From: Myxococcales bacterium
GTDB lineage: Bacteria; Desulfobacterota; Binatia; UTPRO1; JBBIJE01
NCBI GenBank assembly: GCA_037446155.1
Contig: JBBIJE010000002.1
Coordinates: 9,171-73,170, forward strand
Length of the DNA: 64,000 bases
Reading direction: 5' to 3'
Shown here: piece by piece, positions 1-20,989 of the stretch
Numbering within the stretch: the stretch's first letter is position 1
How the letters are laid out: every line of letters starts with the position of its first letter
Position numbers and translations under genes: made by a program
The notes under the pieces: model-generated
Told to the model about the DNA's origin: nothing
Seen by the model: the letters and a program-made list of their open reading frames with translations, nothing else
The model's database searches: none

Positions 1-129
1 TCCCGCACCGGCCGCCGCCGCGCCCTTAGCCTGCGCAGCCGAGCTTTGCGGGAACCTGAGGTTCGTGAGCGTAAGGGCGAGCAAGCCCACCGCCGTGTTG
101 CCCAAAAATTCTCGCCTCGTTAGGTTCAT
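1..129 (-). CDS. Tat-signal protein, N-terminal 43 codons only (gene runs off window start); last gene of the Mo-enzyme operon
   Basis: Reverse complement of 1-129 reads MNLTRREFLGNTAVGLLALTLTNLRFPQSSAAQAKGAAAAGAG: an n-region, an RREFL twin-arginine motif and a hydrophobic h-region. AGGGGG lies 6-12 nt upstream of the ATG. It starts 23 nt downstream of the alpha1 stop. Confidence 0.5.
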   Translation of the reverse strand, partial: MNLTRREFLGNTAVGLLALTLTNLRFPQSSAAQAKGAAAAGAG

Positions 130-6910: not shown

Positions 6911-6934
6911 TTTGCTCTCTCGTTCCTCATCCCC

Positions 6935-7300: not shown

Positions 7301-7313
7301 ATCAGTCTCCCGC

Positions 7314-7913
7314 TCAGCCGAGAAGAACGAACGAATCGGGGTGGTCGAAGCTATCCGCCTCGAACACCTTGCTTGTGTCCACTACCAACATGCCGCTCAA
7401 GTCGACGCCGATTTTGAGCCTCGGCAACGGCCGGGGCGCGGGCCCGGAAAAGTTGACGCCGTTGCTATGGTACTCGCTGCCGTGGCAGGGGCAGCGGAAC
7501 TGCCTCGCCGAGGCGAACCAGTTGACCGTGCAGCCTAGATGAGTGCAGCGGCCCGACATGGCGAAGATCCGATCCTGCTGCCGGACGACGAAAAACCGGT
7601 AGCGGCGCTTCCAGGTCTCGTCCACTTCGATCACCCCGTAGGCGTCGGGGGTCCCGCCCCGCATGAACTCCTCGGGCGCCCCGATCCTGAACGTGGTGGG
7701 GGGCTGGTAAAGCACTCGGGGGAAGAAAAAGCGCAGGGTCTCGATCCCCGCCACCCCCAAAGTGGCGATAAACCCACCCCATCCCGCCAGGGTGAGGCCG
7801 CTCAGCAGAAGCTCGCGCCTGGCAAGCGACTCTTTGGCGCCCTCGCCGGCCTCTCCCGGCCCGACCAAGGCGCGGATCACCTTCGCAGCCGCATCGTCCA
7901 GTGGCATGCGCAA
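7314..7913 (-). CDS. Rieske [2Fe-2S] iron-sulfur protein, Tat-dependent
   Basis: CTHLGC and CPCHGS Rieske boxes. Tat motif ARRELLLSGLTLAGWGG followed by a TM helix. Start lies 4 nt after the chaperone stop. Confidence 0.85.
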   Translation of the reverse strand: MRMPLDDAAAKVIRALVGPGEAGEGAKESLARRELLLSGLTLAGWGGFIATLGVAGIETLRFFFPRVLYQPPTTFRIGAPEEFMRGGTPDAYGVIEVDETWKRRYRFFVVRQQDRIFAMSGRCTHLGCTVNWFASARQFRCPCHGSEYHSNGVNFSGPAPRPLPRLKIGVDLSGMLVVDTSKVFEADSFDHPDSFVLLG

Positions 7914-7917
7914 CCCT

Positions 7918-8580
7918 CTACTCAGCGCGCTTTAGAAGTCCCTCCACCCAATTTCGGTCACGGGTCGTGAACCCGACGGTCAAGGAAACCAGATCGGCGA
8001 AAAACTGGAGCGGCTCCTGCTTCGCGAGCTTGGCTGCCATGAGCGGCAGCCATTTCACGACTTGCCGCTCCAGAAAATCCCGCGTAGCCCGCCTGAAAGC
8101 GCCGCAATCATGACCTGCGTGGAGCGCGCGCGTTTCGCAAAAACTCAGGTAATGGAGAAACTCGAGCTCGGTGGTCAAATGGTCGGGAAGCTCGCGCTGG
8201 GTGCTCGACAGAGACAGCCCGAAGTGGCTGTAGAACCGCATCACTTCCTCCATCACCCGCATTCTCGCTCGCCCGTAGTGTCCCCCGTAGAGCGGACAGG
8301 GCGGGCCGCCCACCCCGACGTCGAACAGGCGAATGTACTCGGCCTGGAAGTCGTCGTACGAACAGGTGGCCGAAAGGGCGCCAAGCTCCCCGAAGTCGTA
8401 GGGAAGACCGGCCAAGAGGCCGCCGAGCTCATCGCGCAGCGTACCGCCAGCGACCGACGCGTGAAATTCCTCGGTGGGAAACCGGAAGCAGGAGGCGAGC
8501 GCCGCGTACACTCGGCTTCTCGCCGCAGCCGCCCTCTCCTCTTCCCCGCTTAGATCCCTGATTTCCACGTTCACGTCCAT
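7918..8580 (-). CDS. TorD/NarJ/EbdD-family cofactor-insertion chaperone (delta subunit)
   Basis: About 220 aa, Tat-proofreading-chaperone-like, with LPDHLTTELEFLHYL resembling the TorD-family signature. Overlaps the beta gene stop by 10 nt. Confidence 0.75.
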   Translation of the reverse strand: MDVNVEIRDLSGEEERAAAARSRVYAALASCFRFPTEEFHASVAGGTLRDELGGLLAGLPYDFGELGALSATCSYDDFQAEYIRLFDVGVGGPPCPLYGGHYGRARMRVMEEVMRFYSHFGLSLSSTQRELPDHLTTELEFLHYLSFCETRALHAGHDCGAFRRATRDFLERQVVKWLPLMAAKLAKQEPLQFFADLVSLTVGFTTRDRNWVEGLLKRAE

Positions 8581-9689
8581 CTAAGCTCCGCCGGATCCTG
8601 CGTGAGATGGCTGAATAGCTCCTTCCACTGGTAAACGATCAAGAGGTCCATGAGCTCGGACTTCTCGCCCCGGCGCGTCTTCGCCATCTCTCCCTTCAGC
8701 GTCTCGAGCGCCCGCTCGACCTCGTCCCCGAAGAGATACTGCAAGTACTTGAGCGGTATCCGGGGCTTGGTCTCGTCTATCTCCCCCCGTTCATTGAACC
8801 GCGGCGGCGCCAGCGGCGGCACGTAATAGACATTGGGCTCGGTTCCGGTCTCGGGGTGAAGCGGCAGCGCCACCTTCCACTCCTTTACCAGCTTGTAAAC
8901 GGGACTCGTCTCGTCGTCGAGCAATCCCACGAAACGAAGCCGGCCCGGGCACTGCCTGGCGCACGCCGGCGGCACCTTCTTCTCGACGCGCGGAAAACAA
9001 AAGATGCACTTTTGGGCCACCTTCTTCACATGATTGAAATATATCTTCTTGTAAGGGCAGGCCTCCATGCAAAACCGGTAGCCGCGACACCGCTTCTCGT
9101 CGATGAGCGTGATTCCGTCCTCTTTCCGCTTGTAGATGGCGTTACGGGGGCAAGCTTCCAAACAGGCCGGGTAGGAGCAATGGTTACAGATCCTCGGCAG
9201 GTAGAAATAGAAACTGTTGGGATACTGCCCGCCCCCCTGATCCTCGTCCCAGTTGGGACCCCACTTGGGCTCCTCGCCTTTTACTTTCAGATAAACGCCG
9301 TTCCCCTTCCCGCCTTGAAAGACCTCGTCGTAGTTGAACTCCCAGGCCGCTCCGAAATCGTCCACCAGCGGCAATTGCCCGGCTATAGGCTCCTTGAATT
9401 CCCCTCTGAAGCCGCCTCCCATCTTCTCCCAATCCTTGGGAGTGCCCTTGCCCGGCTGGGTGTTGACCGTCGCCCACCACATGTATTCCATACCCTCTTC
9501 GCGGGTCCACAGGGTCTTGCACGCTATGGTGCAGGTTTGGCATCCCAAGCACTTGTTCAAGTCGAACACCATCGCCAGTTGGTGATCTACCGTGCGAAGC
9601 TGCTCTTTCTTGGCCTTGGCTTCCCGCGCCAACTCCTCCTGCCGCTTCTTCTTTTCTTCCTCGAGCTGCTGCTGTGTCTTATCTGCCAT
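8571..9689 (-). CDS. Fe-S beta subunit of a type II Mo enzyme (NarH/EbdB-like, four Fe-S clusters)
   Basis: MVFDLNKCLGCQTCTIACK, CNHCSYPACLEACP, CRGYRFCMEACPY and CIFCFPR are the four ferredoxin-type Cys groups of NarH-family beta subunits. It also carries the family-specific insert (WEFNYDEVFQGG). Confidence 0.9.
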   Translation of the reverse strand: MADKTQQQLEEEKKKRQEELAREAKAKKEQLRTVDHQLAMVFDLNKCLGCQTCTIACKTLWTREEGMEYMWWATVNTQPGKGTPKDWEKMGGGFRGEFKEPIAGQLPLVDDFGAAWEFNYDEVFQGGKGNGVYLKVKGEEPKWGPNWDEDQGGGQYPNSFYFYLPRICNHCSYPACLEACPRNAIYKRKEDGITLIDEKRCRGYRFCMEACPYKKIYFNHVKKVAQKCIFCFPRVEKKVPPACARQCPGRLRFVGLLDDETSPVYKLVKEWKVALPLHPETGTEPNVYYVPPLAPPRFNERGEIDETKPRIPLKYLQYLFGDEVERALETLKGEMAKTRRGEKSELMDLLIVYQWKELFSHLTQDPAELRWT

Positions 9690-9750
9690 GGCTGCTCTCC
9701 TTCTCGCTCACTCGATCTCCCAAATCCGGGTTGATTCGCCTGCGCGCCGC

Positions 9751-10410
9751 CTATGCCTCCAACTCGAAGTCGCGCCATTCCTTGGAGAAGCTCTTGACTC
9801 CGGCGCGCTCGCCGTTTCCGCCTTCCCAAACGGCAAACCCGATCTTGGTCGGCTTTCCCACTTCGAGTTTGACCGACTCATCCGGCGGGCCCCCTACCGC
9901 CAAGTTCCTCGCCAGCACCACCTGCCACTTCCCGTTCTCCCAGCGGGACTTGGCCTTTATGAAGCTCTCTTCGCTGTAGTTGGTGGTGCTGAGGCCTTCG
10001 GCCCAAACGTTCTTCGGCTGATCGGCGAAATCGGCGCGCCAGTACCAGGCATTGACCCGCTCCTCCTTGCGCCCCATCTCGTCTATCGGAGGCTCGTCCT
10101 TGATGGGGAACAAGACGCCGGCACCATCCGGAAATGTGTTGGTTTCCGTTACCTCGAGATTGCGCGCCTCGTCCGCCCATTCGAGCCTCAAGAACACCTG
10201 CCCTCCGTTGTGACAGCATTTGACCTCGAGCTCCCTCACCTTCCCGATCTTCTTTTCGTCACGCGAAGCTTTGATGTACTCGGAAGGCTGATTCGCAAGC
10301 GGCGTCGCCGCCATCTCGATCTTCTCCCCCGCCACGCCGCTCCACTGCCCCGAGGTCGGATCGAGCAATTCCTCCAAACTCGCGCTTACCTTCTTTGCCT
10401 TTATCGCCAT
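9751..10410 (-). CDS. Heme-b gamma subunit, ethylbenzene-dehydrogenase (EB_dh) domain family (EbdC/SerC/NxrC-like)
   Basis: Within ORF 9751-10455; start MAIKAKK at 10410 overlaps the anchor stop. RVNAWYWRAD (W-x-W) and the C-terminal WEGGNGERAGVKSFS...FEL are reminiscent of the EB_dh heme-b domain. About 219 aa, as for EbdC-type subunits. Confidence 0.7.
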   Translation of the reverse strand: MAIKAKKVSASLEELLDPTSGQWSGVAGEKIEMAATPLANQPSEYIKASRDEKKIGKVRELEVKCCHNGGQVFLRLEWADEARNLEVTETNTFPDGAGVLFPIKDEPPIDEMGRKEERVNAWYWRADFADQPKNVWAEGLSTTNYSEESFIKAKSRWENGKWQVVLARNLAVGGPPDESVKLEVGKPTKIGFAVWEGGNGERAGVKSFSKEWRDFELEA

Positions 10411-10964
10411 CTCTCTCCTCCTATCTCTCGACGCAGACCGCTCGGCGCGGCCCACGCACGATCTAACGCCGCCGTTTTACCTCTAGCCCCCTCCCCTTCG
10501 CGCGCAAAAATCCAGCGCAGCGCTTTCAGTGCCCGCTCGGTACCCACTACTAAGATGTGCAAGCCCAGCACCGCCGCAGCGGCATAGGTGAGCCACTCGT
10601 GGATCGAAAACATCCGATCCGCAAGCTGAATGGAAAAATGGTCCGGCTTCCAGATGACGAGGCCGCTTGCACCGAAGATCAGGGTGACCCAGTAAGTGTA
10701 ACGCACGTGGATGCCCCGCCACCACCCCGTGAAGCGCCACGGGGGCATCTTGGGCCAGCGCCGCGCCCCGGCGTACACCACGAGAGGCACCACGAGCGAG
10801 ACGATGCCAAACCAGAGGTGGATCTCCTTGATCGTAGCGGAATAGCCGCCGACGAAGCGCGCCCGAAGCTCGGGAAAAAGGAGGAGGAGGGCGGTCCCGA
10901 AGGTCACCGTGAAAAGAGCGGCGTGACTCGTGTGCAAAACGAAAAGATAACTCGGCTTTCTCAT
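10401..10964 (-). CDS. His-rich polytopic membrane protein, putative heme-b membrane anchor/quinol-interacting subunit
   Basis: Within ORF 10401-11015; start MRKPSY at 10964. About 5 hydrophobic helices with His in or near them (LHTSHAALF, EIHLWFG, GIHVRY, SIHEWL, GLHILVV). First gene after the 200-bp gap downstream of alpha2. Confidence 0.5.
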   Translation of the reverse strand: MRKPSYLFVLHTSHAALFTVTFGTALLLLFPELRARFVGGYSATIKEIHLWFGIVSLVVPLVVYAGARRWPKMPPWRFTGWWRGIHVRYTYWVTLIFGASGLVIWKPDHFSIQLADRMFSIHEWLTYAAAAVLGLHILVVGTERALKALRWIFAREGEGARGKTAALDRAWAAPSGLRREIGGERWR

Positions 10965-11164
10965 CGGCCGCTCTGATCGAACCCCAAATTTGCGAACGGC
11001 AAGCGCCCATTGCATCGGCCGCCCCGCTCCGTTTCGCCTTCCCGTCCCCTTCCATAATCGCGCGCGCTGCAGGCGGCGCGCAATCCCCCGATCGGGGTAG
11101 CCCGTACATGCTTTCGATGAGCAGGAGCGAACGTACGGTTACACTCTTCCATCGGCCGTCCGGG

Positions 11165-14100
11165 TCAGATCTTCTGCACGTCCACTGCAACGGCGCGGTC
11201 CGCTTGCTGGGGCTGCCAGTTCCATCTCCAATACTTAAGATGCCCGTAATCGCCGGCCAGGTGCAGCCACTTCACCATGCCCGGAATCGCCGCGTCGTAA
11301 GGTACCTGGCCCGGGAACTGGTAGGGCTCCCAGGCGTGGTAAATGATCAACTGCCCCGGCCGGGCGGAGGGGGCAAGCTTGACCGACACTTTGAAGGACG
11401 AAAAGTCGTTGAAGACCTTGACGACCTCTCCATCCTTTATCGCCTTCTTCTTGGCGTCCTCCGGATTCATGAACATGAAAGGCTGCCCCCGGTGCGTCAT
11501 GAGCAAAACCTTGTTCGTCACCCAGATCGAATGGATGCTCCAGCGCTGATGCCCGCTCGTCATCCGAAATGGATAGTTGCCCCCCATGGTCGGATTGGGC
11601 TTGTGTACGGGAAGCGCTTCGCCCGCTTCCAGGAACCAGTCGTGGTCTATGTAGAACTGCGCCCGCCTGGTGAGGGTCGGATACGGTATCTTCTTCTCCG
11701 TATGGAAGGTGAGGCAGGACACCGTCTCGTTCGGCTTTATGTCGCCCGCTACGTTCAAGCTCACGGGGTCGTATTTCCCGAGGCTCGTGAACCTGACGAA
11801 ACCATCTTTGCGGTATTTCGCCAGATTGGAGCCGGGGGGAAAGAGCCCTTCGCGCACGCTGTCCTCGGCGAAAAGCTCGAGCGCCTTTTCCATTTCATTT
11901 TCTTTTATCTGCTCGCCGTAGGTATAACGGGTGTAAATTCGATCGAAGCGGCGCGTCCTCCCCATGACCGCCCCCTGCCCTGGGAAGAGGGCGCGAACCA
12001 CTCGCTCCCCGATTTCGGTCTCGGCCAGCCGAGAAAGCAGCGCCCCCAAGGTTCCGCCCGCCATGCTGATCAGCGCCTTGGGAACCGGGCGGGTGCGTTT
12101 GTACTCCTCGAGCCCCTGCGCCTTGGCGCGCTCGCCTATCTTTTTCGCGAGGCGGCCGAAGATCTCGAACTCCGTGAGCGACTCGCCCAGCGGATCTACG
12201 GCCTTGTCGGTGAATGTGTTGAAGGTCACGTGCGGCGTGAAGAAGCGAAAATCCGGCCGCTCGTAGAACCAGGCGACCGGCAGGACGTAATCGGAGTAAA
12301 GTGCGGTCGTGCTCATGCGCGGATCCACGGTGACGATGAGCTTGAGCTTCGGCCAGAGGTTCTGGAGCAGTTGCTTGTACCCGCCTCTGGTTCTTCTCAA
12401 GGTGCTCCCCGCCAAGCCGAAGAGCACCTCCGGGGGCCGAGTGGGTTCCGGCAGCACGTACCCTTCCCACCAGCCCTTCTCCAGCGCCTCTTTGTAGTAG
12501 TCGTCGAAGGAGCGCTTCATGCTCGGATCCGACCACTCCTTCTTGTTCCACACCTCGCGGTAGCCGGCATGGTGGTACCAGTAGAAGACCGGCGGAACGG
12601 TCCCCACGAGCGAGCTCGTCAAGCGGTCCCGCTCGATGGCGACCATCTCGTCGGTCATGGTAGGATCCTGGGCGCGGATTTTCTCGTTGAGGTCGTCCAT
12701 CAGCTTCGCCAGGCGCTCGTATTCCTCGACGGTGGCGACATTTCGGCCGAAGGTGAACTCCTTGGGGTCCCCCGATTCGTTCCAACCGCGGTTGCCGGTC
12801 CCCTTCTTCCCCCAGTTTCCGGTAAGACCGAGCAGCAGAGCCATCGAGCGCTCCATCAAGTCGCCATGGTAGTATTTATTGGAGTTCCAGCCCATGAGAA
12901 CGTTCGTCCGCTTGCTCGCTACCTTCTTGGCGAGCAGGCGAATGATCTGGGGGGAGGTCCCGCAGAGTTGCGAGGCCTGCTCGGGCGTGTAAGCCTTGAG
13001 ATGCTCCTTGAGAAGAGCGAATACCGGCTCCACCGTCACTTCCTTGCCGTCTTGCAGCTTGACCTGGACCGTGCCCTCCAGGGCCGGATCCACCCCTTCG
13101 AGCTCGAGCGTCGCCCGTGGCGCCTGCACGATCTTGCCCGACTTGGCGTCGAGAAAATAAAACTGGTCGTTGCGCCCGCCGCTTTCGAGATCGCTTTGGC
13201 GCAAGAACTTCTTGGTGTCCCTCCTGACCAGAAGGGGCAGGTCGGTTTGCTCCTTCACGAAGGCGGCGTTGTGGAGATTCTCGGTTACGATGACGTTGCA
13301 CATGCCGAGCGCCAGGGCGGCGTCGCAGCCGAAATTCACCGGCACGTAGAGATCGGCATGGATGCTGGATGCGTTGTAATCGGGCGCGATGCTCACCACC
13401 TCGGCACCATGGTAGCGACCCTCGGTAATGTAGTGGGCACCGGGTATCCTCGTATAGACGGGATTCATGTGCCATATCAGCGTAAGCTCCGCGTGGAACC
13501 AGTCGTCCTGGGAGCTGCAATGCTGGAACTTCCCGTAGGTTATGTAATTGCCGACGTTGAAGTCCCCGATGAGAGCGTCCACGTCGAGGGTCGTCGCACC
13601 CAGCGTGGTGGCGAAGCGGCCGACGCTGAGGGCCTGGAAGATGCCGATGTTCCCCGGCCCCATCTCGAATACGATCGACTCGGGCCCCTTCTCCTTGATG
13701 GTCGAGATCATTTGATCGGCTATGTCCGTCAGCGCCTCGTCCCAGCTCACCCTCTTCCACTTGCCCTGGCCGCGCTCGCCCACGCGCTTTAGCGGGTAGA
13801 GCACGCGCTCGGCACCGTAGGTGACTTTGCTGAAGGAGGCTCCCTTCTGGCAGCCTCTGGGATTCATGTCGGGCACGCCCGGTTCTATCACCGGATAGCG
13901 GGCCTGCTGCTCCTCCCTCAGTATCAGCCCGTCACGCACATATACGTGCCAGGCGCAGTTGCCCGGGTAGCAATCGACGCAGTGCGTGCCCTTCGTGACC
14001 TTGTCCCAGCGCCACTTCTCCCGGTAGAGATCCTCCCAGGAGCGGTAGGTGTAGCCCTGCGGCCCTACCACCGCCTCTTCGGCCACGGATGCGCGCGGCC

Positions 14101-14179
14101 TTAGCGATGTAAGCGAGAGCGCGAGCATTGTGGTGCCTGTTACCTTGAGGAAATCCCGCCGCGTGAACAACACTCCCAT
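11165..14179 (-). CDS. Molybdopterin oxidoreductase catalytic subunit, paralog alpha2 (divergent), Tat-exported
   Basis: Tat motif TRRDFLKVTGTTMLALSL. YRSWEDLYREKWRWDKV then THCVDCYPGNCAW (H-C-x2-C-x4-C, about 13955-13984) differs from the H-x4-C-x3-C of alpha1 and alpha3. 1004 aa. Molybdopterin-oxidoreductase-like sequence throughout. Confidence 0.9.
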   Translation of the reverse strand: MGVLFTRRDFLKVTGTTMLALSLTSLRPRASVAEEAVVGPQGYTYRSWEDLYREKWRWDKVTKGTHCVDCYPGNCAWHVYVRDGLILREEQQARYPVIEPGVPDMNPRGCQKGASFSKVTYGAERVLYPLKRVGERGQGKWKRVSWDEALTDIADQMISTIKEKGPESIVFEMGPGNIGIFQALSVGRFATTLGATTLDVDALIGDFNVGNYITYGKFQHCSSQDDWFHAELTLIWHMNPVYTRIPGAHYITEGRYHGAEVVSIAPDYNASSIHADLYVPVNFGCDAALALGMCNVIVTENLHNAAFVKEQTDLPLLVRRDTKKFLRQSDLESGGRNDQFYFLDAKSGKIVQAPRATLELEGVDPALEGTVQVKLQDGKEVTVEPVFALLKEHLKAYTPEQASQLCGTSPQIIRLLAKKVASKRTNVLMGWNSNKYYHGDLMERSMALLLGLTGNWGKKGTGNRGWNESGDPKEFTFGRNVATVEEYERLAKLMDDLNEKIRAQDPTMTDEMVAIERDRLTSSLVGTVPPVFYWYHHAGYREVWNKKEWSDPSMKRSFDDYYKEALEKGWWEGYVLPEPTRPPEVLFGLAGSTLRRTRGGYKQLLQNLWPKLKLIVTVDPRMSTTALYSDYVLPVAWFYERPDFRFFTPHVTFNTFTDKAVDPLGESLTEFEIFGRLAKKIGERAKAQGLEEYKRTRPVPKALISMAGGTLGALLSRLAETEIGERVVRALFPGQGAVMGRTRRFDRIYTRYTYGEQIKENEMEKALELFAEDSVREGLFPPGSNLAKYRKDGFVRFTSLGKYDPVSLNVAGDIKPNETVSCLTFHTEKKIPYPTLTRRAQFYIDHDWFLEAGEALPVHKPNPTMGGNYPFRMTSGHQRWSIHSIWVTNKVLLMTHRGQPFMFMNPEDAKKKAIKDGEVVKVFNDFSSFKVSVKLAPSARPGQLIIYHAWEPYQFPGQVPYDAAIPGMVKWLHLAGDYGHLKYWRWNWQPQQADRAVAVDVQKI

Positions 14180-14198
14180 CGACTCTTACCTCCCTTGC

Positions 14199-17066
14199 CT
14201 AGGTCCTGATCCTCTCCACCTCGACCGCCGTCGCCCTGGGCGTGTGGCTCGGCTGCGCGAGGAAAGTACGGTAGTGGAGCTGGCCGTAGTCGCCGACCAG
14301 GTGGAGAGGCTTCCAGGGCGAAGCCACGACTTCTTGGTTACCCTGCCACTTCGGGAACTGATAGGGCTCCCAGGCGTGGTAAACGACAACCTGGCCCGGC
14401 TGCAGCGTGGGCGTTACCTTGGCCCTGGCGGAGAAGCTCCCCACGTCGTTGTAGATCCTGACCCTGTCATGGTCGGAGATACCGCGAGCCTTGGCGTCCG
14501 AAGAGCCGATGTAAATTACCGGCTCGCCCCGCTGAAGCTGCAGCATAAAACGCTGGTCGCGCCAGATGGCGTGTATGCTCCAGCGGGTGTGGCCTCCCGT
14601 CAGGCGAAGCGGGTAATCCCCCCCCGCCAGAGGGGGGGGCTTGTGCGTGGGAAGGGCCTCCCCGAGTTCCAGATACCAGTCGTGATCGATCAAAAACTGC
14701 TGTCTTCCGGTGAGAGTCGGCCAGGGCTGTTTCCCCTTCACGAACCACTGCGAAGGAGAGACCGGCTCGCCCTCGATAAGATCGCTGCAAACCGCGTCGA
14801 TGCCGCTGTAGCGCCCGGTGCTCTTGATCTTGATTACCCCGAGCTTTCGCGCCTCGCTCCAGTTCGTGCCCGCCGTAACGGGAGACTCCTCGAGGATATA
14901 CTCCATCGGCTTCGCGTCATCCCCCGGCGCCCACTCCCCTCCCTTGCTCCACTCCTCGTAGATGGCCGTGAGATCGTGGCGATTGCCGAAGACGTCGGTG
15001 ACCTCGCGGATTCCCGCCTTCTCGGCCTGCTCGGCGATTTTTCGCGCCAAGAGCCCCGAGACCTCCCACTCCCCTTTGGATTCGAACAGCGGATCGACCG
15101 CCCGATCCCCGATCACGACATAGGGCAGGTAGGTCTGAGTGAACTTGATGCCGATCTTCTCGTAATAGCCTGCGGCGGGCAAAATGATGTCCGAGTAAAG
15201 GCCGGTCGTGGACATCCGAAAGTTTATGCTCACCGCCAGGTCGAGCTTGGGCCAGAGAACTTCGCGCGCGACCTGCGGCGTCGGCCAGCGCCTAAGCGGG
15301 TTGAGCCCGCTGAAGATATAGAGCTTCGGAGATTTGCCGTTGCGCGGATAAAAGGGCATCCAGCCCTTTTCGTCCGCCTCTCTTGCGTATTCGGAAAATG
15401 GCCGCTTGAGCGCCGGATCGTTGAATTCGGGGCGGCTTACCACCTTGTCGAAGCCGCCATGGTGGTAGAGGCTATAGAGCACGGAGGTGTAGGCGTAGCG
15501 CTCCCTCACCAGGCGGGTAAAGAATCCCTCGAAGTCCCTAACCGTCGGCTTGGCCATGCCGATGAGAAAGCGATCGATGAGGCTCAAGTCGTAAGCGTTG
15601 GCCATCCGCTCGAATCCCTCGAGGCTCCACCACGCTCCGATCCTCAATCCCCCGCCCGGCTTTCCCTGGTTGCCAGTGAGCGCCACCAAAAGGATCATCG
15701 CGCGTTGCATGAGGTCGCTATGGTAATGCTTACATGAACCCCAGGAGGCGAAGATCATGGCGGAGCGCGCCTCGGCGAACTCGCGGCCGAGCTGCCGGAT
15801 GAGCTTTGCGTCGATCCCGGTCTGCCGACCAGCGAGCTCCGGCGTGAAATTGGCGTCAAGGTGCTCCCGCAGGACCTCGAAAACCGGCCGGACCTCGACC
15901 TTTCGGCCGTCGGCGAGCTCCACCGTGAAGCGGCCCTCGAGCGCGGGTTTTCGCGTGTAGAGTTTCAAATTGCCGCGCTTTAGGCCCTCGCTTCCCGGTG
16001 CTCGGGCGAGTTCGTTGTTGCTCGAGTCCCAGAAGTAGAAGACGTTTTCCGCGCCTTTCCTCTCCACATCCGACTCGCGCAAGAACTTCTTGGTGTCCTG
16101 GCGCACGAGAAGCGGCAAATCGGTTTGTTCGCAGACGTACTCGCGATCGTAGAGACCCTCGGCAATGATTACCTGTGCGGCCCCGAGGGCGAGCGCGGCG
16201 TCGCTTCCGACCCTGGGATTGAGCCACAGGTCGGCGTGGATGGCGGTGGCGTTGTAATCAGGTGCAACCACCACCAACTTGGCGCCGCGATAGCGTGCCT
16301 CGAGCATGTAGTGCATCTCCGGTATTCGCGTGTAAACCGGGTTGCCGAGCCAAACCACGATGTAATCGGACCTGAACCAATCGTCCGAAGTCCCGTCCAC
16401 GTTGAACATGCCCCAGGTTTGGATGGCGCCCATCGGCAGGTCGCCGACCCCAGCCCAGGAATCGAGGAAGGTCACCCCGAGCAGGCTAAAGAGCCGCTGC
16501 TCCCCTCCCGTGCTCGGGCCGAAATCCACGTTGGTCGTTCCGTGATCGTACCAGATGCACTCGGGTCCCTCCTTGGCCGCGACCTCCACGAGCTTGCGTG
16601 CGATCTCCTCCAGCGCCTCGTCCCACGATACCCGCTTCCATTTCGCGGAGCCTCGCGGCCCCAGCCGCTTGAGCGGGTACTTGATGCGACTCGGACTGTA
16701 CATGAGGTCGCTGTAGCAGGCGCCCTTTTGGCATCCTCGCGGGCCGAAGTCGGGAATTTGCGGGTTGGTCTGCGCGTAGCGTCCGGATTGCTCCTCCCGC
16801 CAGACGATCCCATCCTTGACGTAGAGGTCCCACGCGCACGCGGCGATGCAGTCGGTCCGCAGGTGGGTGCCTCGTACCACTTTGTCCCAGCGCCACTTCT
16901 CGCGGTAGAGGTCCTCCCAGGAAGCATAGTCGTAGCCGTCGACGATCCTCCCGCCGCTTGCGCTTTGCTCGGCGCGCGCCTCCCGGGACACCTCCAGGTA
17001 GTGCAGGCAGAGCGCAAGGCCGGCTGCCGCCCCCGCCGCTTTCAGAAACTCTCTTCGGCTCAGCAC
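14199..17066 (-). CDS. Molybdopterin oxidoreductase catalytic subunit, paralog alpha3, Tat-exported
   Basis: Tat motif SRREFLKAAGAAAGLAL. YASWEDLYREKWRWDKVVRGTHLRTDCIAACAW (H-x4-C-x3-C, about 16836-16865). 955 aa. Closest to alpha1. Sits 20 nt upstream of alpha2. Confidence 0.9.
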   Translation of the reverse strand: MLSRREFLKAAGAAAGLALCLHYLEVSREARAEQSASGGRIVDGYDYASWEDLYREKWRWDKVVRGTHLRTDCIAACAWDLYVKDGIVWREEQSGRYAQTNPQIPDFGPRGCQKGACYSDLMYSPSRIKYPLKRLGPRGSAKWKRVSWDEALEEIARKLVEVAAKEGPECIWYDHGTTNVDFGPSTGGEQRLFSLLGVTFLDSWAGVGDLPMGAIQTWGMFNVDGTSDDWFRSDYIVVWLGNPVYTRIPEMHYMLEARYRGAKLVVVAPDYNATAIHADLWLNPRVGSDAALALGAAQVIIAEGLYDREYVCEQTDLPLLVRQDTKKFLRESDVERKGAENVFYFWDSSNNELARAPGSEGLKRGNLKLYTRKPALEGRFTVELADGRKVEVRPVFEVLREHLDANFTPELAGRQTGIDAKLIRQLGREFAEARSAMIFASWGSCKHYHSDLMQRAMILLVALTGNQGKPGGGLRIGAWWSLEGFERMANAYDLSLIDRFLIGMAKPTVRDFEGFFTRLVRERYAYTSVLYSLYHHGGFDKVVSRPEFNDPALKRPFSEYAREADEKGWMPFYPRNGKSPKLYIFSGLNPLRRWPTPQVAREVLWPKLDLAVSINFRMSTTGLYSDIILPAAGYYEKIGIKFTQTYLPYVVIGDRAVDPLFESKGEWEVSGLLARKIAEQAEKAGIREVTDVFGNRHDLTAIYEEWSKGGEWAPGDDAKPMEYILEESPVTAGTNWSEARKLGVIKIKSTGRYSGIDAVCSDLIEGEPVSPSQWFVKGKQPWPTLTGRQQFLIDHDWYLELGEALPTHKPPPLAGGDYPLRLTGGHTRWSIHAIWRDQRFMLQLQRGEPVIYIGSSDAKARGISDHDRVRIYNDVGSFSARAKVTPTLQPGQVVVYHAWEPYQFPKWQGNQEVVASPWKPLHLVGDYGQLHYRTFLAQPSHTPRATAVEVERIRT

Positions 17067-17731
17067 GCCTCCGAGACCTCCTGCCTCCCGGGAATCAAAG
17101 CGGCTTGGAAGAACCGCAAGGTTTCTTGCTTGATCCGCGCCACGCCCTGTGGCCCGAATGCATCGGAAAGCCAGGCCGGGGCCAGCATGGGCGCCGAAAT
17201 GAACGAGAAAATCACGATACCCATCACGGCGATGATGAGAAACATCGGGTCCCCACGCCTGAAAACCCTGGCGTCTTGCCCTTGAGAGATGAAATCTGTG
17301 ATGGCCTCGATTATGGGCCTGGCATGCTCTGCGAGCGTGCGTCCCAGCTCTTCTTCCTGATCCAGCGCCGCCCGCACGAGCATGTGAGCCCTTCCCGGGT
17401 GCGTCGCGACGGATTCTATGTAGGTCTCGATAAGCTTGAGAAGCCGCTCCTCGAAGGAGAGGCTCCCGGAAATCGCGCCGCGAATCTTATCCTCGAGTTC
17501 CCGGGTGGCGCGGTCGGTTACCTCTTCGTATATGCTCTGCTTGTTCTTGAAGTGGTGAAAGAGCGAGGCCTTGCGGATCCCCACTTTCGCGGCCAGTTTC
17601 TGAAGGCTGGTCCCATGGTAGCCGTGCGCTGCGAACATTTCCTCGGCGGTCTTGAGGATCGCTTCGCGGGTATCGGCGCGGCCTCTGCGTCTTGGCCGTT
17701 TTACCGGCCTGCTTTCGTCGACGTTAAGCAT
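17060..17731 (-). CDS. TetR/AcrR-family transcriptional regulator
   Basis: N-terminal HTH TREAILKTAEEMFAAHGYHGTSLQKLAAKVGIRKASLFHHFKNKQ. Start MLNVDES at 17731 (ORF extends to 17782). Its stop overlaps the alpha3 start by about 7 nt. Confidence 0.85.
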   Translation of the reverse strand: MLNVDESRPVKRPRRRGRADTREAILKTAEEMFAAHGYHGTSLQKLAAKVGIRKASLFHHFKNKQSIYEEVTDRATRELEDKIRGAISGSLSFEERLLKLIETYIESVATHPGRAHMLVRAALDQEEELGRTLAEHARPIIEAITDFISQGQDARVFRRGDPMFLIIAVMGIVIFSFISAPMLAPAWLSDAFGPQGVARIKQETLRFFQAALIPGRQEVSEAC

Positions 17732-17982
17732 GCTAACCTTCCTACCGGTCGGGAGGGTAGATTGTAAAGGGCGACGCGTCATCCAAGAATGTGATTTTTG
17801 TCAGTTTTTTCGACGGGCCTCTCCGCGCAAGAAAAACGGCGGCGGCGGACCGAGCCGACTATCGAGCCCAGCCAGACTGCCCCCCCGTCGGGCCAGCGAA
17901 GAGGCGAAGCGCCAGCCAGGGCTGGTCCGCGGAGCGCCGTCCCCTGGTGCCGCCCAGGCCCGCCTGCTAAGTACCCAAACCC

Positions 17983-18417
17983 ATGGAAGAGCGCCAACCA
18001 CCGCAACCGAGGGGCTCTCGCCTACGCGACCTTCTTTTCCCCGATCCGCCTCGAAGCCTTCCGGCCTCGCGGGGGATCAGAATCGCGTTCCGCACGGCGC
18101 ACATCGCAAGCTTTGGCATCGTGTTGGGTGGGCACTTCTTCGACATCGAGCCGGCCCGTTTGCTCTGGCCCCTTTACGCCAGCGTGGCCACGGGTGCGGG
18201 GCTCATCGCCGTGGAGCTCCACAAGAGCTGCCGGTGGGTCTATCAGGGAATGGGTGTGATGACGCTACTCAAGTGCGCTCTTTTGCTGACAATACCATGG
18301 GCTTGGAGCTGGCGCGTGCCGATCCTTCTCGGCGTGTTGGTGCTAGGGTCCGTCGGCTCGCACATGCCGAGCCGGTTTCGCTACTACTCCCTCATCCACC
18401 GCCGCCCCCTGGAGTAG
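17983..18417 (+). CDS. Hypothetical small membrane protein (uncertain)
   Basis: Hydrophobic segments (IASFGIVLGGHFF, LIAVELH, VPILLGVLVLGSV). Divergent from the TetR gene. Its 3' end overlaps the convergent tatA by 26 nt, which lowers confidence. Confidence 0.3.
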   Translation: MEERQPPQPRGSRLRDLLFPDPPRSLPASRGIRIAFRTAHIASFGIVLGGHFFDIEPARLLWPLYASVATGAGLIAVELHKSCRWVYQGMGVMTLLKCALLLTIPWAWSWRVPILLGVLVLGSVGSHMPSRFRYYSLIHRRPLE

Positions 18418-18700
18418 CCTCGGGCTTTTTGTCTGCGGGAGGCTCGCCCCGAGTTGCCGACTCGCCCCCTTTCGTGGGCGTCGCTTTTGCCGCCGACCCT
18501 CCCGCCTCGCCTTTCTCCGCTTCCCGTTCCGCCTCGGCAATGGCGGTTCGCACCTGGGTTTCGACATCCCTGGCTGCTTTGCGAAACTCGGCCAGCCCTT
18601 TTCCCAGGCTTCGCGCAACCTCGGGAAGCCTTTTTGGCCCGAGGACCAAAAGCGCCACTACGAGGATAACGATGAGCTCGGGAAGGCCAATGGGTCCCAT
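18392..18700 (-). CDS. tatA: Twin-arginine translocase subunit TatA/E
   Basis: MGPIGLPELIVILVVALLVLGPKRLPEVARSLGKGLAEFRKA is a typical TatA TM plus amphipathic helix, followed by a charged, low-complexity tail. Confidence 0.85.
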   Translation of the reverse strand: MGPIGLPELIVILVVALLVLGPKRLPEVARSLGKGLAEFRKAARDVETQVRTAIAEAEREAEKGEAGGSAAKATPTKGGESATRGEPPADKKPEATPGGGGG

Positions 18701-18830
18701 TCAAGAGCTATCCAATCAGGCGCGGCCTGCGAGACCGCCCGAGGTACCCAAGACAATGAAGAGCCAAAGCCCGCCAAACCTCCCTGACGAGTCCGCCGGC
18801 TGGGCAGGCGCGCGCCCGGCGCTCGCCCCG

Positions 18831-19073
18831 CTACTGGCCACCCCCGGCCCGCCCCTTCTCCTTGGACTTCTCCCCTCCCTTTTCGCTCTCCTGATTCGAG
18901 GAGCCTCCTTGCGCGGAAGGAGTCACGTCGATTGCGTCGTCGCGCAGGCCCTTGCGAAAAGCCGTAATCCCCTTGCCCAACCCGCTCATGAGCTCGGGTA
19001 CGCGAGAGGCGCCAAAGAGGAGAAGGACGATCAAGAGAATCACCAAAAGCTCGGGTAAGCCGAGGCCGAACAT
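18831..19073 (-). CDS. Second TatA/TatB-family translocase subunit
   Basis: [42 protein letters not shown]; paralog of the adjacent tatA. Confidence 0.8.
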
Positions 19074-19193
19074 TTACCGACACCTCCAGAGCCGCAACAT
19101 ATCAGGAAGAACCAGCAGGCACAACCACCCGGGATTCGGCCGGCGACAACGCCGCGCGCCGCCGCCTTCGACCACGCTTGCTCGCAAGCGGCC

Positions 19194-20024
19194 CTAGAGC
19201 CGCGGCCGCCTAAACGTCCTTTTACGCACGCATCTGCTGTCTAAGGCCCTGCCGCTTCCCCCTTCGCTTATGACGCGCATCATTACCGCGGGCGCCGTTA
19301 CCTCTACTCCACCCAGTACGCTCACCCCCCGCTCGAAGAGAGGCTCCGGCACCACGCTCGCTGTAGGGCCTACCACCGCTACTTCGCGCGCCCGCCCGCA
19401 CATGGGCAAAAGGCCGTCGAGCGACCCGTTGGCGAGGGCCGAGCCGGTGATGATCACGAGCGTGGAGACCCCGAGAAGCTCCGCCGCCTCCTCCTCCCGG
19501 CGAAGCCACCGCCGATGCTCATCCCTTACCATCGAGGAATCGCGCTCGAAAAGGTAAAGCTCCCGAACCCGCCCTTCGAGCCGCACGAGATAGGGCGTCA
19601 TCGCCCCCACGAGGCTCACGACGTCATCGGCCTCGGGGTGCAGAAGCTCGAAAGGATCCGCCGGCGCACCGGCGGCGTCGAATGCCTGGGGCCTTGGATT
19701 CTCTACGAGAACGTGGTTGCAGAGAGCGTTTAGAACCGCCATGCTGGCGGACCACAGGAGAGGGTCATCTTCGCCGCGAAGGGCGAGGAGCTCGAAGGCC
19801 GCCCTTTCGCAAAACGAGCCCGGCTCCGGCAAACCCCGGGAGGGTAAAGGGCAACACTGCCCCCTCGCCCTCTCCCCGTGCGAGACATACGCCAGTCCTG
19901 CCGATCCATCCTCGAGAACCGCTCCGGCCAGATAGACCCCGATGCGCAGATCCGCCACCGCCGGCCACCCAGCGGGAGGACCGAGCTCTCTTCGCACGGC
20001 CTCTTCGATTTCCGCTAGTAGGCT
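19194..20024 (-). CDS. DUF4213/DUF364-like protein (Rossmann-like putative metal-chelation domain)
   Basis: C-terminal 276 codons of ORF 19194-20570. The N-terminal R/G-rich part overlaps the Crp gene in another frame, so I discount it. Likely TTG start overlapping the Crp TGA. Region MAVLNALCNHVLV...TLVIITGSALANGSLDGLL...VAVVGPTASVVPEPLFERGVSVLGG. Confidence 0.45.
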   Translation of the reverse strand, partial: SLLAEIEEAVRRELGPPAGWPAVADLRIGVYLAGAVLEDGSAGLAYVSHGERARGQCCPLPSRGLPEPGSFCERAAFELLALRGEDDPLLWSASMAVLNALCNHVLVENPRPQAFDAAGAPADPFELLHPEADDVVSLVGAMTPYLVRLEGRVRELYLFERDSSMVRDEHRRWLRREEEAAELLGVSTLVIITGSALANGSLDGLLPMCGRAREVAVVGPTASVVPEPLFERGVSVLGGVEVTAPAVMMRVISEGGSGRALDSRCVRKRTFRRPRL

Positions 20025-20881: not shown

Positions 20882-20989
20882 GCGCCGGCGCCCACCGCTA
20901 GCACGCTTTCCGGTTCCGCAGGTGGTTTCTTGAGGCCAGTTTTGGGTGTACTAACGACGAACGGCCGATCTGCAATTTTGGGAGGTATG

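Follow-up and report, generated by a model that had tools for sequence, protein, structure and literature searches.

Within the stretch of DNA analysed here (64 kb, hereafter the window), several genes for catalytic (alpha) subunits of molybdenum enzymes related to ethylbenzene dehydrogenase (EBDH) lie together with a single set of genes for beta, gamma, and delta subunits, and the question is whether several alphas could be served by one electron-transfer unit and, if so, with what range of substrates. Enzymes of the EBDH and steroid C25 dehydrogenase (S25DH) type are of interest for stereospecific synthesis, for example, of 25-hydroxyvitamin D3. To our knowledge, these oxygen-independent hydroxylases are the only known means of water-based activation of some hydrocarbons, steroid side chains, and isoprenoids, and the very few members characterised so far all come from a small set of cultured organisms. 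The sharing of beta and gamma subunits by different alphas in Sterolibacterium denitrificans, which a sequence-only reading of this DNA had invoked as a precedent, is borne out by the literature: this bacterium has eight alpha genes and fewer beta and gamma genes; alpha1 to alpha4 of S25DH each gave active alpha-beta-gamma complexes when made with beta, gamma, and the chaperone SdhD; and the alphas differ in substrate range (PMC6016249).

A literature search found no paper joining Binatia with ethylbenzene dehydrogenase, and molybdenum hydroxylases are not mentioned in the Binatota genome paper. A search for EBDH combined with Rieske proteins and type II DMSO reductases returned only papers on nitrite oxidisers and haloarchaea.

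Organisation of the Gene Array

The genes lie on the minus strand in an operon-like array spanning about 17 kb, in the order TetR-family regulator, alpha3, alpha2, cytochrome b561, gamma, beta, delta, Rieske protein, ferredoxin-like protein, cytochrome b in two parts, octahaem cytochrome c, alpha1, and alpha4 (Table 1). Intergenic gaps range from −10 to +200 nt, and adjacent alpha genes are spaced by 19–23 nt. Overlaps amount to 7 nt between the stop of the TetR gene and the start of alpha3, 10 nt between the end of b561 and the beginning of gamma, and 4 nt between the gene for the C-terminal part of cytochrome b and the one upstream of it. In a promoter and terminator scan, terminator-like sites occurred in the array at chance-level counts, with none within the intergenic gaps; since the counts did not exceed chance, the scan is uninformative save for the lack of intergenic terminators. 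A tRNA scan of the window detected no tRNA genes.

Three near-identical relatives (L007, L009, and L010), taken from Logan and JGI, served as comparison strains. The DNA of L009 and L010 is 92.6–93.2% identical to the window, and a stretch of L007 collinear with positions 17936–24184 of the window (89.6% DNA identity) carries the orthologues of the two Tat genes located just upstream of the array (L007:5122-5364 and 5443-5805). A scan of genome contigs found relatives only at 51–59% identity. By PurA, the DNA belongs to an uncultured lineage, the best named matches (68–69%) being a 'Deltaproteobacteria' MAG and a Candidatus Binatia MAG. The dN/dS values indicate purifying selection on all genes of the array.

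Table 1. Genes of the array and its upstream flank (positions in the window).
Feature	Position	Strand	Supporting evidence
Alpha4, N-terminal 43 codons, gene continues past the window edge	1..129	-	Tat-tagged Mo-bisPGD catalytic subunit; translation MNLTRREFLGNTAVGLLALTLTNLRFPQSSAAQAKG...
Alpha1, catalytic subunit of the alpha1/alpha3 orthogroup	153..3068	-	PF00384 and PF01568; TIGR03479, 955.9 bits
Octahaem cytochrome c, 731 aa, N-terminal membrane anchor	3168..5363	-	Eight CxxCH motifs; one N-terminal hydrophobic helix
Cytochrome b, C-terminal part, subunit IV-like, 242 aa	5382..6110	-	PF00032; multiple TM-like helices
Cytochrome b, N-terminal part, b6-like, 267 aa	6107..6910	-	PF00033, 140.6 bits; PF13631
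Ferredoxin-like protein, 121 aa	6935..7300	-	Two Cys clusters; weak PF12797 match; no signal peptide
Rieske [2Fe-2S] protein	7314..7913	-	PF00355; N-terminus RRELLLSG...
Delta, TorD/NarJ-type assembly chaperone	7918..8580	-	TIGR03482, 179 bits (cut-off 152.3); PF02613
Beta, Fe-S subunit	8571..9689	-	TIGR03478, 524.6 bits (cut-off 480.7)
Gamma, EB_dh haem b subunit, 219 aa	9751..10410	-	PF09459, 112.5 bits
Cytochrome b561, membrane	10401..10964	-	PF01292, 34.6 bits (cut-off 30.1)
Alpha2, catalytic subunit of the EbdA-sister orthogroup	11165..14179	-	Molybdopterin and Molydop_binding; TIGR03479, 999.6 bits
Alpha3, catalytic subunit, recent alpha1 paralogue	14199..17066	-	Molybdopterin and Molydop_binding; TIGR03479, 1005.9 bits
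TetR-family regulator, array head	17060..17782	-	TetR-type NCBIfam matches; PF00440 in the L007 orthologue
Two TatA/TatB/TatE-family genes, just upstream of the array	18384..19073	-	PF02416 on the L007 orthologues

Four Catalytic Subunits and One Beta/Gamma/Delta Set

The earlier description of three Tat-tagged alpha paralogues stands as regards the three full-length reading frames and their Tat motifs, but the number rises to four once the gene at the window edge is included. The 43 codons of this gene translate as MNLTRREFLGNTAVGLLALTLTNLRF... and are collinear with complete genes for 954-aa proteins with Molybdopterin and Molydop_binding domains in L009 (L009:12898-15762) and L010 (L010:12925-15789). 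The Tat motif [ST]RR[DEQ]FL is found in all alphas, as SRRQFL (alpha1), TRRDFL (alpha2), SRREFL (alpha3), and TRREFL (alpha4); the Pfam TAT_signal model gave a sub-threshold match to alpha3 only. Against the 984.75-bit cut-off of TIGR03479, the model of type II DMSO reductase alpha subunits, alpha2 and alpha3 score above and alpha1 just below. For alpha1, the GTG at 3026 is the more probable true start, giving a protein of 957 aa; P0121, also of 957 aa, is 100% identical to alpha1.

Alpha1 and alpha3 share 60.7% identity, against 39.0% for alpha1 and alpha2 and 40.5% for alpha2 and alpha3, in agreement with the earlier view of alpha2 as the more divergent paralogue; alpha4 is 43–47% identical to the other three. 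Pseudogenisation of the alphas, a possibility raised beforehand, was ruled out by reading frames uninterrupted in L007, L009, and L010, by dN/dS values of 0.05–0.14 (0.11–0.14 for alpha1, 0.05–0.06 for alpha2, and 0.09 for alpha3), and by the conservation of catalytic and cluster-binding residues described below.

Beta, gamma, and delta each gave one match in the window (tblastn, E ≤ 1e-3), and Pfam scans of the other large reading frames in the window were negative for additional EB_dh, Fer4_11, and Nitrate_red_del proteins; the single set noticed in the initial reading is thus confirmed at this scale. Further beta or gamma genes beside the edge gene, which would have undermined that reading, did not appear in L009 and L010, where MFS or DUF2784 genes come after this gene, itself an alpha. 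Four groups of Cys residues (4+4+3+4) are visible in beta, which is under purifying selection (dN/dS 0.03–0.05) and scores 446 bits with EbdB (2ivf_B), 377 with PcrB, and 240 with NarH. Gamma gave 141 bits with EbdC (2ivf_C), with the haem ligands Met108 and Lys201 aligned and conserved; it scores 157 bits with TIGR03477, below the cut-off of 169.85, and, like the deposited EbdC chain, has no signal peptide.

Phylogenetic Position of the Alpha Subunits

The alpha tree was a rooted neighbour-joining tree with bootstrap, not a maximum-likelihood one, and was built without S25dA, CmdA, AhyA, DdhA, and SerA references. The alphas fall into three orthogroups, each with bootstrap support of 99–100; alpha2 groups with EbdA (98–100), and alpha1 and alpha3 are sisters (94–96). 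ClrA was placed outside the group of alpha1/alpha3, alpha4, and EbdA/alpha2 with a bootstrap of only 66%. Alpha2 scored 836 bits with EbdA (2ivf_A) versus 504 with PcrA, and BLAST identity to EbdA is 41.6% for alpha2 and 36–37% for alpha1 and alpha3. None of the three reaches the 2000-bit cut-off of the EbdA equivalog model NF042978 (alpha1, 640; alpha2, 895; alpha3, 681 bits). Judged from these scores, the alphas are relatives rather than orthologues of EbdA. The alpha-beta-gamma-delta set is assigned to the type II (class II) DMSO reductase family on its model matches, the Tat motifs, the FS0 and Mo ligands of the alphas, the four Cys groups of beta (the family pattern being three [4Fe-4S] clusters and one [3Fe-4S]), the haem b gamma, and the TorD-like delta. 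The tree likewise indicates that alpha1 and alpha3 arose by a recent lineage-specific duplication and that the orthogroups are older than the divergence of the compared lineages.

FS0 Motif and Active Site

The FS0 strings of alpha1 (HLRANCFSAC), alpha3 (HLRTDCIAAC), and alpha2 (HCVDCYPGNC) are exactly those given previously, and that of alpha4 is HFVNCWYQAHC. The corresponding spacings are H-x4-C-x3-C in alpha1 and alpha3, H-x3-C-x4-C in alpha2, and H-x3-C-x5-C in alpha4, the last being identical to that of EbdA. The suggestion that the FS0 site of alpha2 has been rewired is rejected, because alpha2 keeps the canonical H-x3-C register: in HMMER and MAFFT alignments its His, Cys, and Cys fall on the H-x3-C-x5-C ligand positions of EbdA, and its loop is one residue shorter with an extra Cys after the His. 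In a census of 201 homologues with a recognisable motif, 96 had H-x4-C-x3-C and 105 had H-x3-C-x4-C, with the extra Cys present in 19 of the latter. H-x3-C-x4-C is the norm in the alpha2 clade, and it is the H-x4-C of alpha1 and alpha3 that is unusual when judged against NarG, PcrA, pNarG, and ClrA (all H-x3-C-x3-C) and EbdA. A tentative and minor possibility is an all-Cys FS0 in the alpha2 subclade, in which the extra Cys beside the His would have replaced it as a ligand (C-x2-C-x4-C).

Every alpha conserves the FS0 ligands (His/Cys/Cys/Cys, the third Cys being that of NPRGC) and the equivalents of the EbdA Mo ligand Asp223 and of Lys450. In the same comparison with EbdA, which had been proposed earlier, His192 of EbdA was conserved in none of the alphas. 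The loops that surround the Mo ligand differ in sequence from one orthogroup to the next, a pattern that fits different substrate specificities. The idea of three specificities is compatible with these loops but requires adjustment, since there are four alphas and since alpha1 and alpha3, as recent duplicates, may differ little in substrate.

Accessory Redox Genes

The cytochrome b561 has at least three TM-like helices and seven His residues. In L001, L003, and L015 its gene immediately precedes gamma; in L002 it comes right behind an alpha2-type alpha. A module comprising the Rieske, cytochrome b, ferredoxin-like, and octahaem cytochrome c genes sits inserted within the operon. The octahaem protein gave Cytochrom_C matches in four stretches and c7/NrfB-like matches (dN/dS 0.08–0.09), and the N-terminal part of cytochrome b has dN/dS values of 0.02–0.05. 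The ferredoxin-like protein, with the sequence CTGCAGAPVCQVFCP ... CVGCRACLASGQMGCFVAGCP, is conserved in L007, L009, and L010 (dN/dS 0.12–0.29). The Rieske/cytochrome b module is absent from the equivalent multi-alpha clusters L003, L014, L015, and L017, which makes it an accessory rather than the core partner.

Recurrence of the Multi-Alpha Arrangement

An excess of alphas over beta and gamma (four to one at this locus) recurs in unrelated MAGs, with two to six alphas per beta/gamma pair and the same three alpha orthogroups: five alphas accompany one gamma-beta in L003, six in L014, two in L015, and at least three in L017. A TetR gene also adjoins the alpha genes in L014. The flanks of the L015 cluster carry genes for a thiolase, ChsH2-OB, and acyl-CoA dehydrogenases; L016 has an orphan alpha of the alpha1/alpha3 type next to hydantoinase-B, AFOR, and CoA-transferase genes. 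In the window, genes for a Zn-dependent alcohol dehydrogenase (Zn-ADH), an SDR, an enoyl-CoA hydratase, and an acyl-CoA ligase adjoin the array.

The multi-alpha clusters bear on the possibility, rather unlikely in our estimation, that only alpha2 uses the local beta and gamma, the other alphas being satellites with another partner or with a beta and gamma encoded elsewhere. In the window as well as in L003, L014, and L015, the gene immediately upstream of (b561)-gamma-beta is always of the alpha2 type, and orphan alphas of the alpha1/alpha3 type in L013 and L016 have no beta or gamma in the readable flanks of 3–10 kb on either side, so that, evidently, such alphas need not be encoded beside their partners. 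However, partners supplied in trans would themselves amount to sharing, and all four alphas retain the FS0 ligands that pass electrons to beta. Their close packing in one array without intergenic terminators, the lack of another beta or gamma in the 64 kb or beyond alpha4 in L009 and L010, and the retention of satellite alphas beside a single gamma-beta in at least four other lineages also argue against exclusive use by alpha2.

Direction of Catalysis

The Rieske and cytochrome b genes, together with the 41% identity of alpha3 to Haloferax NarG, led us to weigh seriously a function as an oxyanion reductase, a bacterial counterpart of the haloarchaeal pNar, in which each alpha would act as a terminal reductase on a different oxyanion or another oxidant and electrons would pass from quinol through the Rieske/cytochrome b complex or b561 to gamma, beta, and the alphas. 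The pNar operon of Haloferax mediterranei (narG region, pHME322) has the same ingredients, namely a type II alpha (NarG), NarH, an EB_dh protein, a TorD-like chaperone, a Rieske protein, and cytochrome b, and is otherwise the setting from which a Rieske/cytochrome b pair beside a type II enzyme is known. Alpha1 and alpha3 are marginally closer by BLAST to Haloferax pNarG (38–41% identity) than to EbdA, the alpha1/alpha3 clade stands beside the Nar/Pcr clade in 30% of bootstraps (with EbdA, alpha2, and alpha4 in 66%), and a Crp/Fnr-type regulator gene lies near the array.

The rooted neighbour-joining bootstraps and the signature residues led us to downgrade this interpretation, which we now consider unlikely. 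A clade of Escherichia coli NarG, Haloferax pNarG, and PcrA, with a bootstrap of 100, leaves out all window alphas, and alpha2 is instead the sister of EbdA. The aromatic gate and Tyr signature of PcrA and pNarG (F-Y...W-Y-[GS]-D, with Trp461; F-YDWYSD / DW in NarG of H. mediterranei) was missing from the window alphas in the alignment; they read AGVGD, ALIGD, or PEIGD before the Mo-ligand Asp, and K-[YH]-Y-H where the signature, with its Trp after the Lys450 position, has [HD]-W-Y. Moreover, beta and gamma score best with EbdB and EbdC, the Rieske/cytochrome b module is missing from the four other multi-alpha clusters, no chlorite dismutase or nitrite reductase gene was found in the 64-kb window, and the neighbours include alcohol dehydrogenase and beta-oxidation genes. 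The pNar system also differs in having a single alpha and no octahaem cytochrome c, ferredoxin-like gene, or b561.

That the extra alphas are redundant or decaying recent duplicates without distinct function is highly improbable and largely refuted: the lineage-specific duplication giving alpha1 and alpha3 would favour it, but alpha2, alpha4, and alpha1/alpha3 are only 39–47% identical, their orthogroups are older than the split of the compared lineages, the genes are intact in three strains and under constraint, and every orthogroup has active-site loops of its own.

A Probable Modular Hydroxylase with a Proposed Shared Electron-Transfer Unit

The four alphas are most likely anaerobic hydroxylases on one common chassis. 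The notion of several alphas on one beta/gamma/delta set passed every computational check applied, with four in place of three as the number of alphas. In its full form, a modular EBDH/S25DH-type enzyme in which four alphas with different substrates share one beta, gamma, and delta and feed a downstream electron route is, in our opinion, reasonably probable; we infer the physical sharing of beta and gamma, the oxidative direction, the organic substrates, and the downstream route from gene content and residue conservation. Four Tat-tagged Mo-bisPGD alphas of three old orthogroups would each assemble with the Fe-S beta and the haem b gamma, the TorD-like delta would assist alpha maturation, and the complexes would be exported by Tat. 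Each alpha would most likely oxidise a different organic substrate by water-dependent alkyl C-H hydroxylation, with electrons leaving from FS0 through the beta clusters to the gamma haem b and then possibly passing to the membrane cytochrome b561, the quinone pool, the Rieske/cytochrome b complex, and the octahaem cytochrome c. Circumstantial support for such hydroxylation comes from the alcohol dehydrogenase, SDR, enoyl-CoA hydratase, CoA ligase, thiolase, and hydantoinase-B genes that neighbour the alphas here or in L015 and L016.

A more elaborate version can be proposed only tentatively. Up to four interchangeable alphas would plug into one beta-gamma held at the membrane by a dedicated b561, encoded by a gene that overlaps that of gamma and shows conservation across several unrelated lineages; substrate electrons would reach the quinone pool and, through a cluster-encoded Rieske/cytochrome b complex with a cytoplasmic ferredoxin-like subunit, the octahaem cytochrome c. 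If so, anaerobic C-H hydroxylation would be coupled to a Q-cycle with conservation of energy, and EBDH-type enzymes would thereby have their physiological electron acceptor assigned.

The locus extends a known design and is not a new kind of system. With S25DH1–4 it shares the class II alpha-beta-gamma architecture, a Tat-tagged Mo alpha, a four-cluster beta, a haem b gamma, a TorD-like chaperone, and alpha genes that outnumber beta and gamma genes. However, S25DH alpha2–4 are 72–82% identical to alpha1, whereas the window alphas are 39–61% identical and form three deep orthogroups, and all four of them lie in one array that holds a single beta/gamma and also encodes a cytochrome b561 and the Rieske/cytochrome b/octahaem c module. 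We know of neither b561 nor such a module among the S25DH genes. Among solved structures, alpha2, beta, and gamma match EbdABC(D) of Aromatoleum aromaticum (PDB 2IVF) best, and the FS0 ligands, Asp223, Lys450, and the Met and Lys that bind haem in gamma are conserved, but the window has the order alpha-(b561)-gamma-beta-delta instead of A-B-C-D, multiple alphas, extra membrane redox genes, and no conserved His192. The uncharacterised AhyA system, a proposed hydroxylase of non-aromatic hydrocarbons, is also EbdABC-like, and the alpha2 clade may or may not correspond to its cluster; environmental EbdA-like sequences from anoxic sites have been placed in the AhyA cluster, and no multi-alpha arrangement was found for AhyA in the passages searched (PMC7803848).

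Implications

A shared chassis would be a general evolutionary strategy and not a peculiarity of Sterolibacterium, with uncultured lineages (Binatia-like, Myxococcota, and Chloroflexota) holding batteries of deeply diverged alphas per electron-transfer unit. The cytochrome b561, the dedicated bc-type complex, and the octahaem cytochrome c are offered here as candidate physiological redox partners of EBDH-type enzymes. The three alpha orthogroups, with their group-specific active-site loops, provide concrete targets for substrate discovery.

Catalytic and Accessory Subunit Genes of the Array

The sequence-only reading had described three catalytic (alpha) subunits with a single set of beta, gamma and delta subunits. 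Alpha1, alpha2 and alpha3 are present as described, each with Molybdopterin and Molydop_binding domains and a twin-arginine motif, and with TIGR03479 scores of 956 to 1006 bits; identities of 60.7% for alpha1/alpha3, 39.0% for alpha1/alpha2 and 40.5% for alpha2/alpha3 confirmed that alpha2 is the more divergent. Their true number, however, is four. In two close relatives (L009 and L010, one Logan and one JGI contig), which are collinear with the window through this point at 92.6–93.2% DNA identity, the gene cut by the window edge is complete and encodes a 954-aa Molybdopterin/Molydop_binding protein whose N-terminus is the same; the locus therefore has a fourth alpha, 43–47% identical to the other three. 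The possibility of a second beta/gamma pair next to this partial gene is ruled out in both relatives, where the next gene after the complete alpha4, on the opposite strand, codes for an MFS transporter or a DUF2784 protein, and no beta or gamma gene follows. A tblastn search of the whole 64 kb returned one match each for the NarH-like beta, the EB_dh gamma and the TorD-like delta, and likewise for cytochrome b561, the Rieske protein and cytochrome b. Pfam scans of other large ORFs of the window found housekeeping and catabolic genes, and no further subunit genes.

The G+C content of the window is 60–66%, and a GC3 filter was used to tell real genes from the long antisense ORFs that high-GC DNA commonly shows; within the first 18 kb, the real genes are nearly all on the minus strand. 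Three plus-strand ORFs of 535–894 aa, antisense to real genes (11108-13792, 2721-5111, and 14130-15737), were rejected as high-G+C artefacts, their GC3 being low compared with the sense frames. Adjacent genes of the array overlap by no more than 10 nt or are separated by gaps of no more than 200 nt. No intergenic terminator was found in any array gap, terminator-like sites being no commoner than in shuffled sequence. We infer that the array, from 17782 to 1, is one operon. The alpha1 ORF opens with GTG at 3131, the sequence-only reading placed its start at ATG 3068, and the gene calls of NCBI and Logan begin at GTG 3026 (957 aa); the latter is more likely the true start, as it places the RR motif 8–9 residues from the start, matching the other alphas.

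Genes of the array and its surroundings in the window, and related loci in the coordinates of their own sequences
Feature	Coordinates	Strand	Remarks
TetR	17060-17782	-	array head
alpha3	14199-17066	-	Molybdopterin + Molydop_binding
alpha2	11165-14179	-	Molybdopterin + Molydop_binding
cytochrome b561	10401-10964	-	PF01292
gamma, EB_dh	9751-10410	-	
beta, NarH-like	8571-9689	-	
delta, TorD-like	7918-8580	-	
Rieske protein	7314-7913	-	
ferredoxin-like protein, 121 aa	6935-7300	-	two ferredoxin-type Cys clusters
cytochrome b, two parts	6107-6910 + 5382-6110	-	
cytochrome c, 731 aa, octahaem	3168-5363	-	eight CxxCH motifs, one anchor helix
alpha1	153-3068	-	start more likely 3026; Molybdopterin + Molydop_binding
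alpha4	1-129	-	first 43 codons only in window
upstream genes	17983-24732		two TatA/B-family, DUF364, Crp/Fnr-type regulator, enoyl-CoA hydratase, SDR, Zn alcohol dehydrogenase, AP_endonuc_2/TIM-barrel; orthology to close relative L007
AMP-binding acyl-CoA ligase	25227-26768	+	<15 kb from array
enoyl-CoA hydratase + 3-hydroxyacyl-CoA dehydrogenase pair	30679-32465	-	beta-oxidation; <15 kb from array
L014 (JGI 3300027987)	2356-23021		six alphas (two divergent) around single EB_dh gamma + beta; TetR, MarR between
L016 (GCA_016210005.1)	1-12880		operon: hydantoinase-B, LUD/CCG Fe-S protein, ferredoxin, aldehyde:ferredoxin oxidoreductase (AFOR), NMO, family III CoA-transferase; orphan alpha1/alpha3-type alpha last
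L017 (ERZ25039554 contig_10418)	1-16028		at least three alphas, gamma, beta, MobB, delta; adjoins MMPL/sterol-sensing transporter

The dN/dS values calculated against two related strains, with dS of about 0.2–0.3 throughout, were 0.11–0.14 for alpha1, 0.05–0.06 for alpha2, 0.09 for alpha3, 0.03–0.05 for beta, 0.05–0.09 for gamma, 0.10–0.18 for delta, and 0.16–0.22 for b561, and they indicate no decay in any of these genes.

Conservation of the Design in Related Loci

Two Myxococcales MAGs (L001 and L003) carry an opposite-strand alpha4-like gene followed by alpha2-like, b561, gamma, beta, alpha4-like and two alpha3-like genes, giving five alphas per single gamma–beta unit. In locus L015, b561, gamma, beta and delta accompany two alphas, and genes for acyl-CoA dehydrogenases, a thiolase and a ChsH2-type OB protein lie on its flanks. 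In every multi-alpha locus compared, an alpha2-type gene immediately precedes gamma–beta or b561–gamma–beta, and the alpha4- and alpha1/alpha3-type genes are satellites. An orphan alpha1/alpha3-type gene was also found in a Binatia MAG (L013), and no beta or gamma gene lies within 10 kb of the orphan alpha in L016. Among the alpha homologs, many carry the label Binatia, Myxococcota or Chloroflexota. PurA has relatives at 96% and 80%, and its best named matches are in a 'Deltaproteobacteria' MAG (69%) and a Candidatus Binatia MAG (68%), so that the host is an uncultured bacterium, probably related to Binatia. The alpha set of L014 is the largest among the loci compared. The alpha genes of L017 include shortened copies of 740 aa and 292 aa, and these, together with the adjoining transporter, hint that the substrates may be steroids or hopanoids and that alphas are still being gained and lost.

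Family Placement and Active-Site Residues

The closest solved relatives of the window subunits are EbdA, EbdB and EbdC of ethylbenzene dehydrogenase (EBDH). Scores against EbdA and Pcr were 836 and 504 bits for alpha2, 681 and 543 bits for alpha4, 643 and 620 bits for alpha3, and 616 and 561 bits for alpha1; beta scored 446 bits with EbdB, 377 bits with Pcr and 240 bits with NarH. Gamma matched EbdC with 141 bits and keeps the Met108 and Lys201 haem ligands in the alignment. None of the alphas reached the EbdA equivalog cut-off of 2000 bits (scores 640–895).

Neighbour-joining trees (100–200 bootstraps) included the window alphas, all alphas of four related loci, EbdA, PcrA, Haloferax NarG, Alicycliphilus ClrA, and E. 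coli NarG, with EbdA and PcrA rebuilt from printed alignments and checked for length. The alpha2 clade grouped with EbdA (bootstrap 98–100), alpha4 formed a clade of its own (99–100), and so did alpha1/alpha3 (100), with alpha1 and alpha3 as sisters (94–96), while both NarG proteins and PcrA formed a clade (100) with every window alpha outside it. The deep position of the alpha1/alpha3 clade is soft: it joined EbdA, alpha2 and alpha4 in 66% of replicates and stood beside Nar/Pcr in 30%, and by BLAST alpha1 and alpha3 are slightly closer to Haloferax NarG (38–41% identity) than to EbdA (36–37%).

The motifs of FS0, the alpha Fe-S cluster with His and Cys ligands, had been quoted correctly, but the proposal that alpha2 is rewired was not borne out. 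Both HMMER and MAFFT align alpha2 H-CVD-C-YPGN-C onto EbdA H-LNI-C-WPQGS-C, which places the alpha2 His and both Cys in the canonical H-x3-C register; its second loop has one residue fewer than that of EbdA, and the His is directly followed by an additional Cys. E. coli NarG, Haloferax NarG, PcrA, and ClrA have H-x3-C-x3-C, and alpha4 has a spacing identical to that of EbdA. Since alpha1 and alpha3 have a one-residue insertion ahead of the first Cys (H-x4-C-x3-C), it is they, not alpha2, that carry the unusual spacing. The alpha1/alpha3 spacing occurs in 96 and the alpha2 spacing in 105 of 201 homologs with a recognisable motif, the extra Cys being present in 19 of the 105. Judged from these sequences, the FS0 spacings are clade signatures, not a private rewiring.

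In an alignment including EbdA, all alphas keep the fourth Cys (NPRGCQKG), the Mo-ligand Asp (EbdA Asp223), and Lys450. PcrA and Haloferax NarG have F-Y-D-W-Y-[GS]-D ahead of the Mo ligand, together with a Trp that follows the Lys450 position, a signature that we take to be the PcrAB gate residues F164, Y165, and W461, whose numbering fits the sequence; at the same sites the window alphas have AGVGD, ALIGD or PEIGD, and K-[YH]-Y-H.

Membrane Redox Genes and Direction of the Reaction

The b561 gene and the start of gamma share 10 nt, and a b561 gene between an alpha2-type alpha and gamma is also found in several unrelated MAGs (L001, L002, L003, and L015), which suggests that the complex is anchored in the membrane, unlike the soluble EbDH. 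To our knowledge, such an anchor is not part of characterised EBDH or steroid C25 dehydrogenase (S25DH) enzymes. The block of Rieske, ferredoxin, cytochrome b and octahaem cytochrome c genes is restricted among the loci compared to the window lineage (L007, L009, and L010). Of the eight CxxCH motifs of the octahaem protein, four belong to a c7/NrfB-like part at the N-terminus and the other four to class I cytochrome c domains, and the protein also has one N-terminal membrane helix; a shorter relative, a 485-aa cytochrome c, is encoded directly after an alpha2-type alpha in L008. The ferredoxin-like protein, encoded between the Rieske protein and cytochrome b, lacks a signal peptide and is kept in three related strains; bc-type complexes do not usually carry a cytoplasmic Fe-S subunit. 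Taken together, b561, the bc-type module and the octahaem cytochrome would make a coherent electron route, in which electrons could pass from the alphas via beta, gamma and b561 to quinone, with the octahaem cytochrome c then receiving them from quinone through the Rieske/cytochrome b complex.

The main rival explanation is that the enzymes work in the reverse, reductase direction, as in haloarchaeal pNar, whose operon likewise has Rieske and cytochrome b genes. We rate it lower because the fully supported NarG/PcrA clade and the signature residues set the window alphas apart, and because the Rieske module is accessory, without a counterpart in the sister clusters.

Substrate Context and Precedent

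Genes for a Zn alcohol dehydrogenase, SDR, enoyl-CoA hydratase, acyl-CoA ligase, and further beta-oxidation enzymes lie beside the array, and the set upstream of the array would be consistent with an alcohol product being oxidised and with regulation under anaerobic conditions. Related loci carry thiolase/ChsH2 (L015) or hydantoinase-B (L016) genes; acetophenone carboxylase, which acts third in the ethylbenzene pathway, belongs to the hydantoinase-B family. Since the array and related loci adjoin catabolic genes, the context favours organic substrates for the alphas.

The locus is most economically read as a modular enzyme of the EBDH/S25DH type, in which several catalytic subunits would work with one beta–gamma unit and one chaperone. 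S25DH of Sterolibacterium denitrificans is an explicit precedent for several alphas per beta/gamma set: this bacterium has eight genes for alpha subunits and a smaller number for beta/gamma, and its alpha1–4 were each made as an active alpha-beta-gamma complex together with the chaperone SdhD (PMC6016249). The sharing of beta and gamma among the window alphas is a well-supported hypothesis on comparative grounds, given the single beta/gamma/delta set and the recurrence of the design elsewhere. The observation of several alphas beside one beta/gamma/delta set is real and more extensive than first stated, both in the number of alphas and in its conservation.

In the array, the S25DH logic takes a multi-orthogroup, single-operon form, with a membrane redox module encoded alongside. 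A Binatota genome survey makes no mention of EBDH/S25DH-type enzymes. Such an extension of known S25DH logic would not astonish a specialist. The locus offers concrete handles both on the electron acceptor of EBDH-type enzymes and on their substrate diversity.
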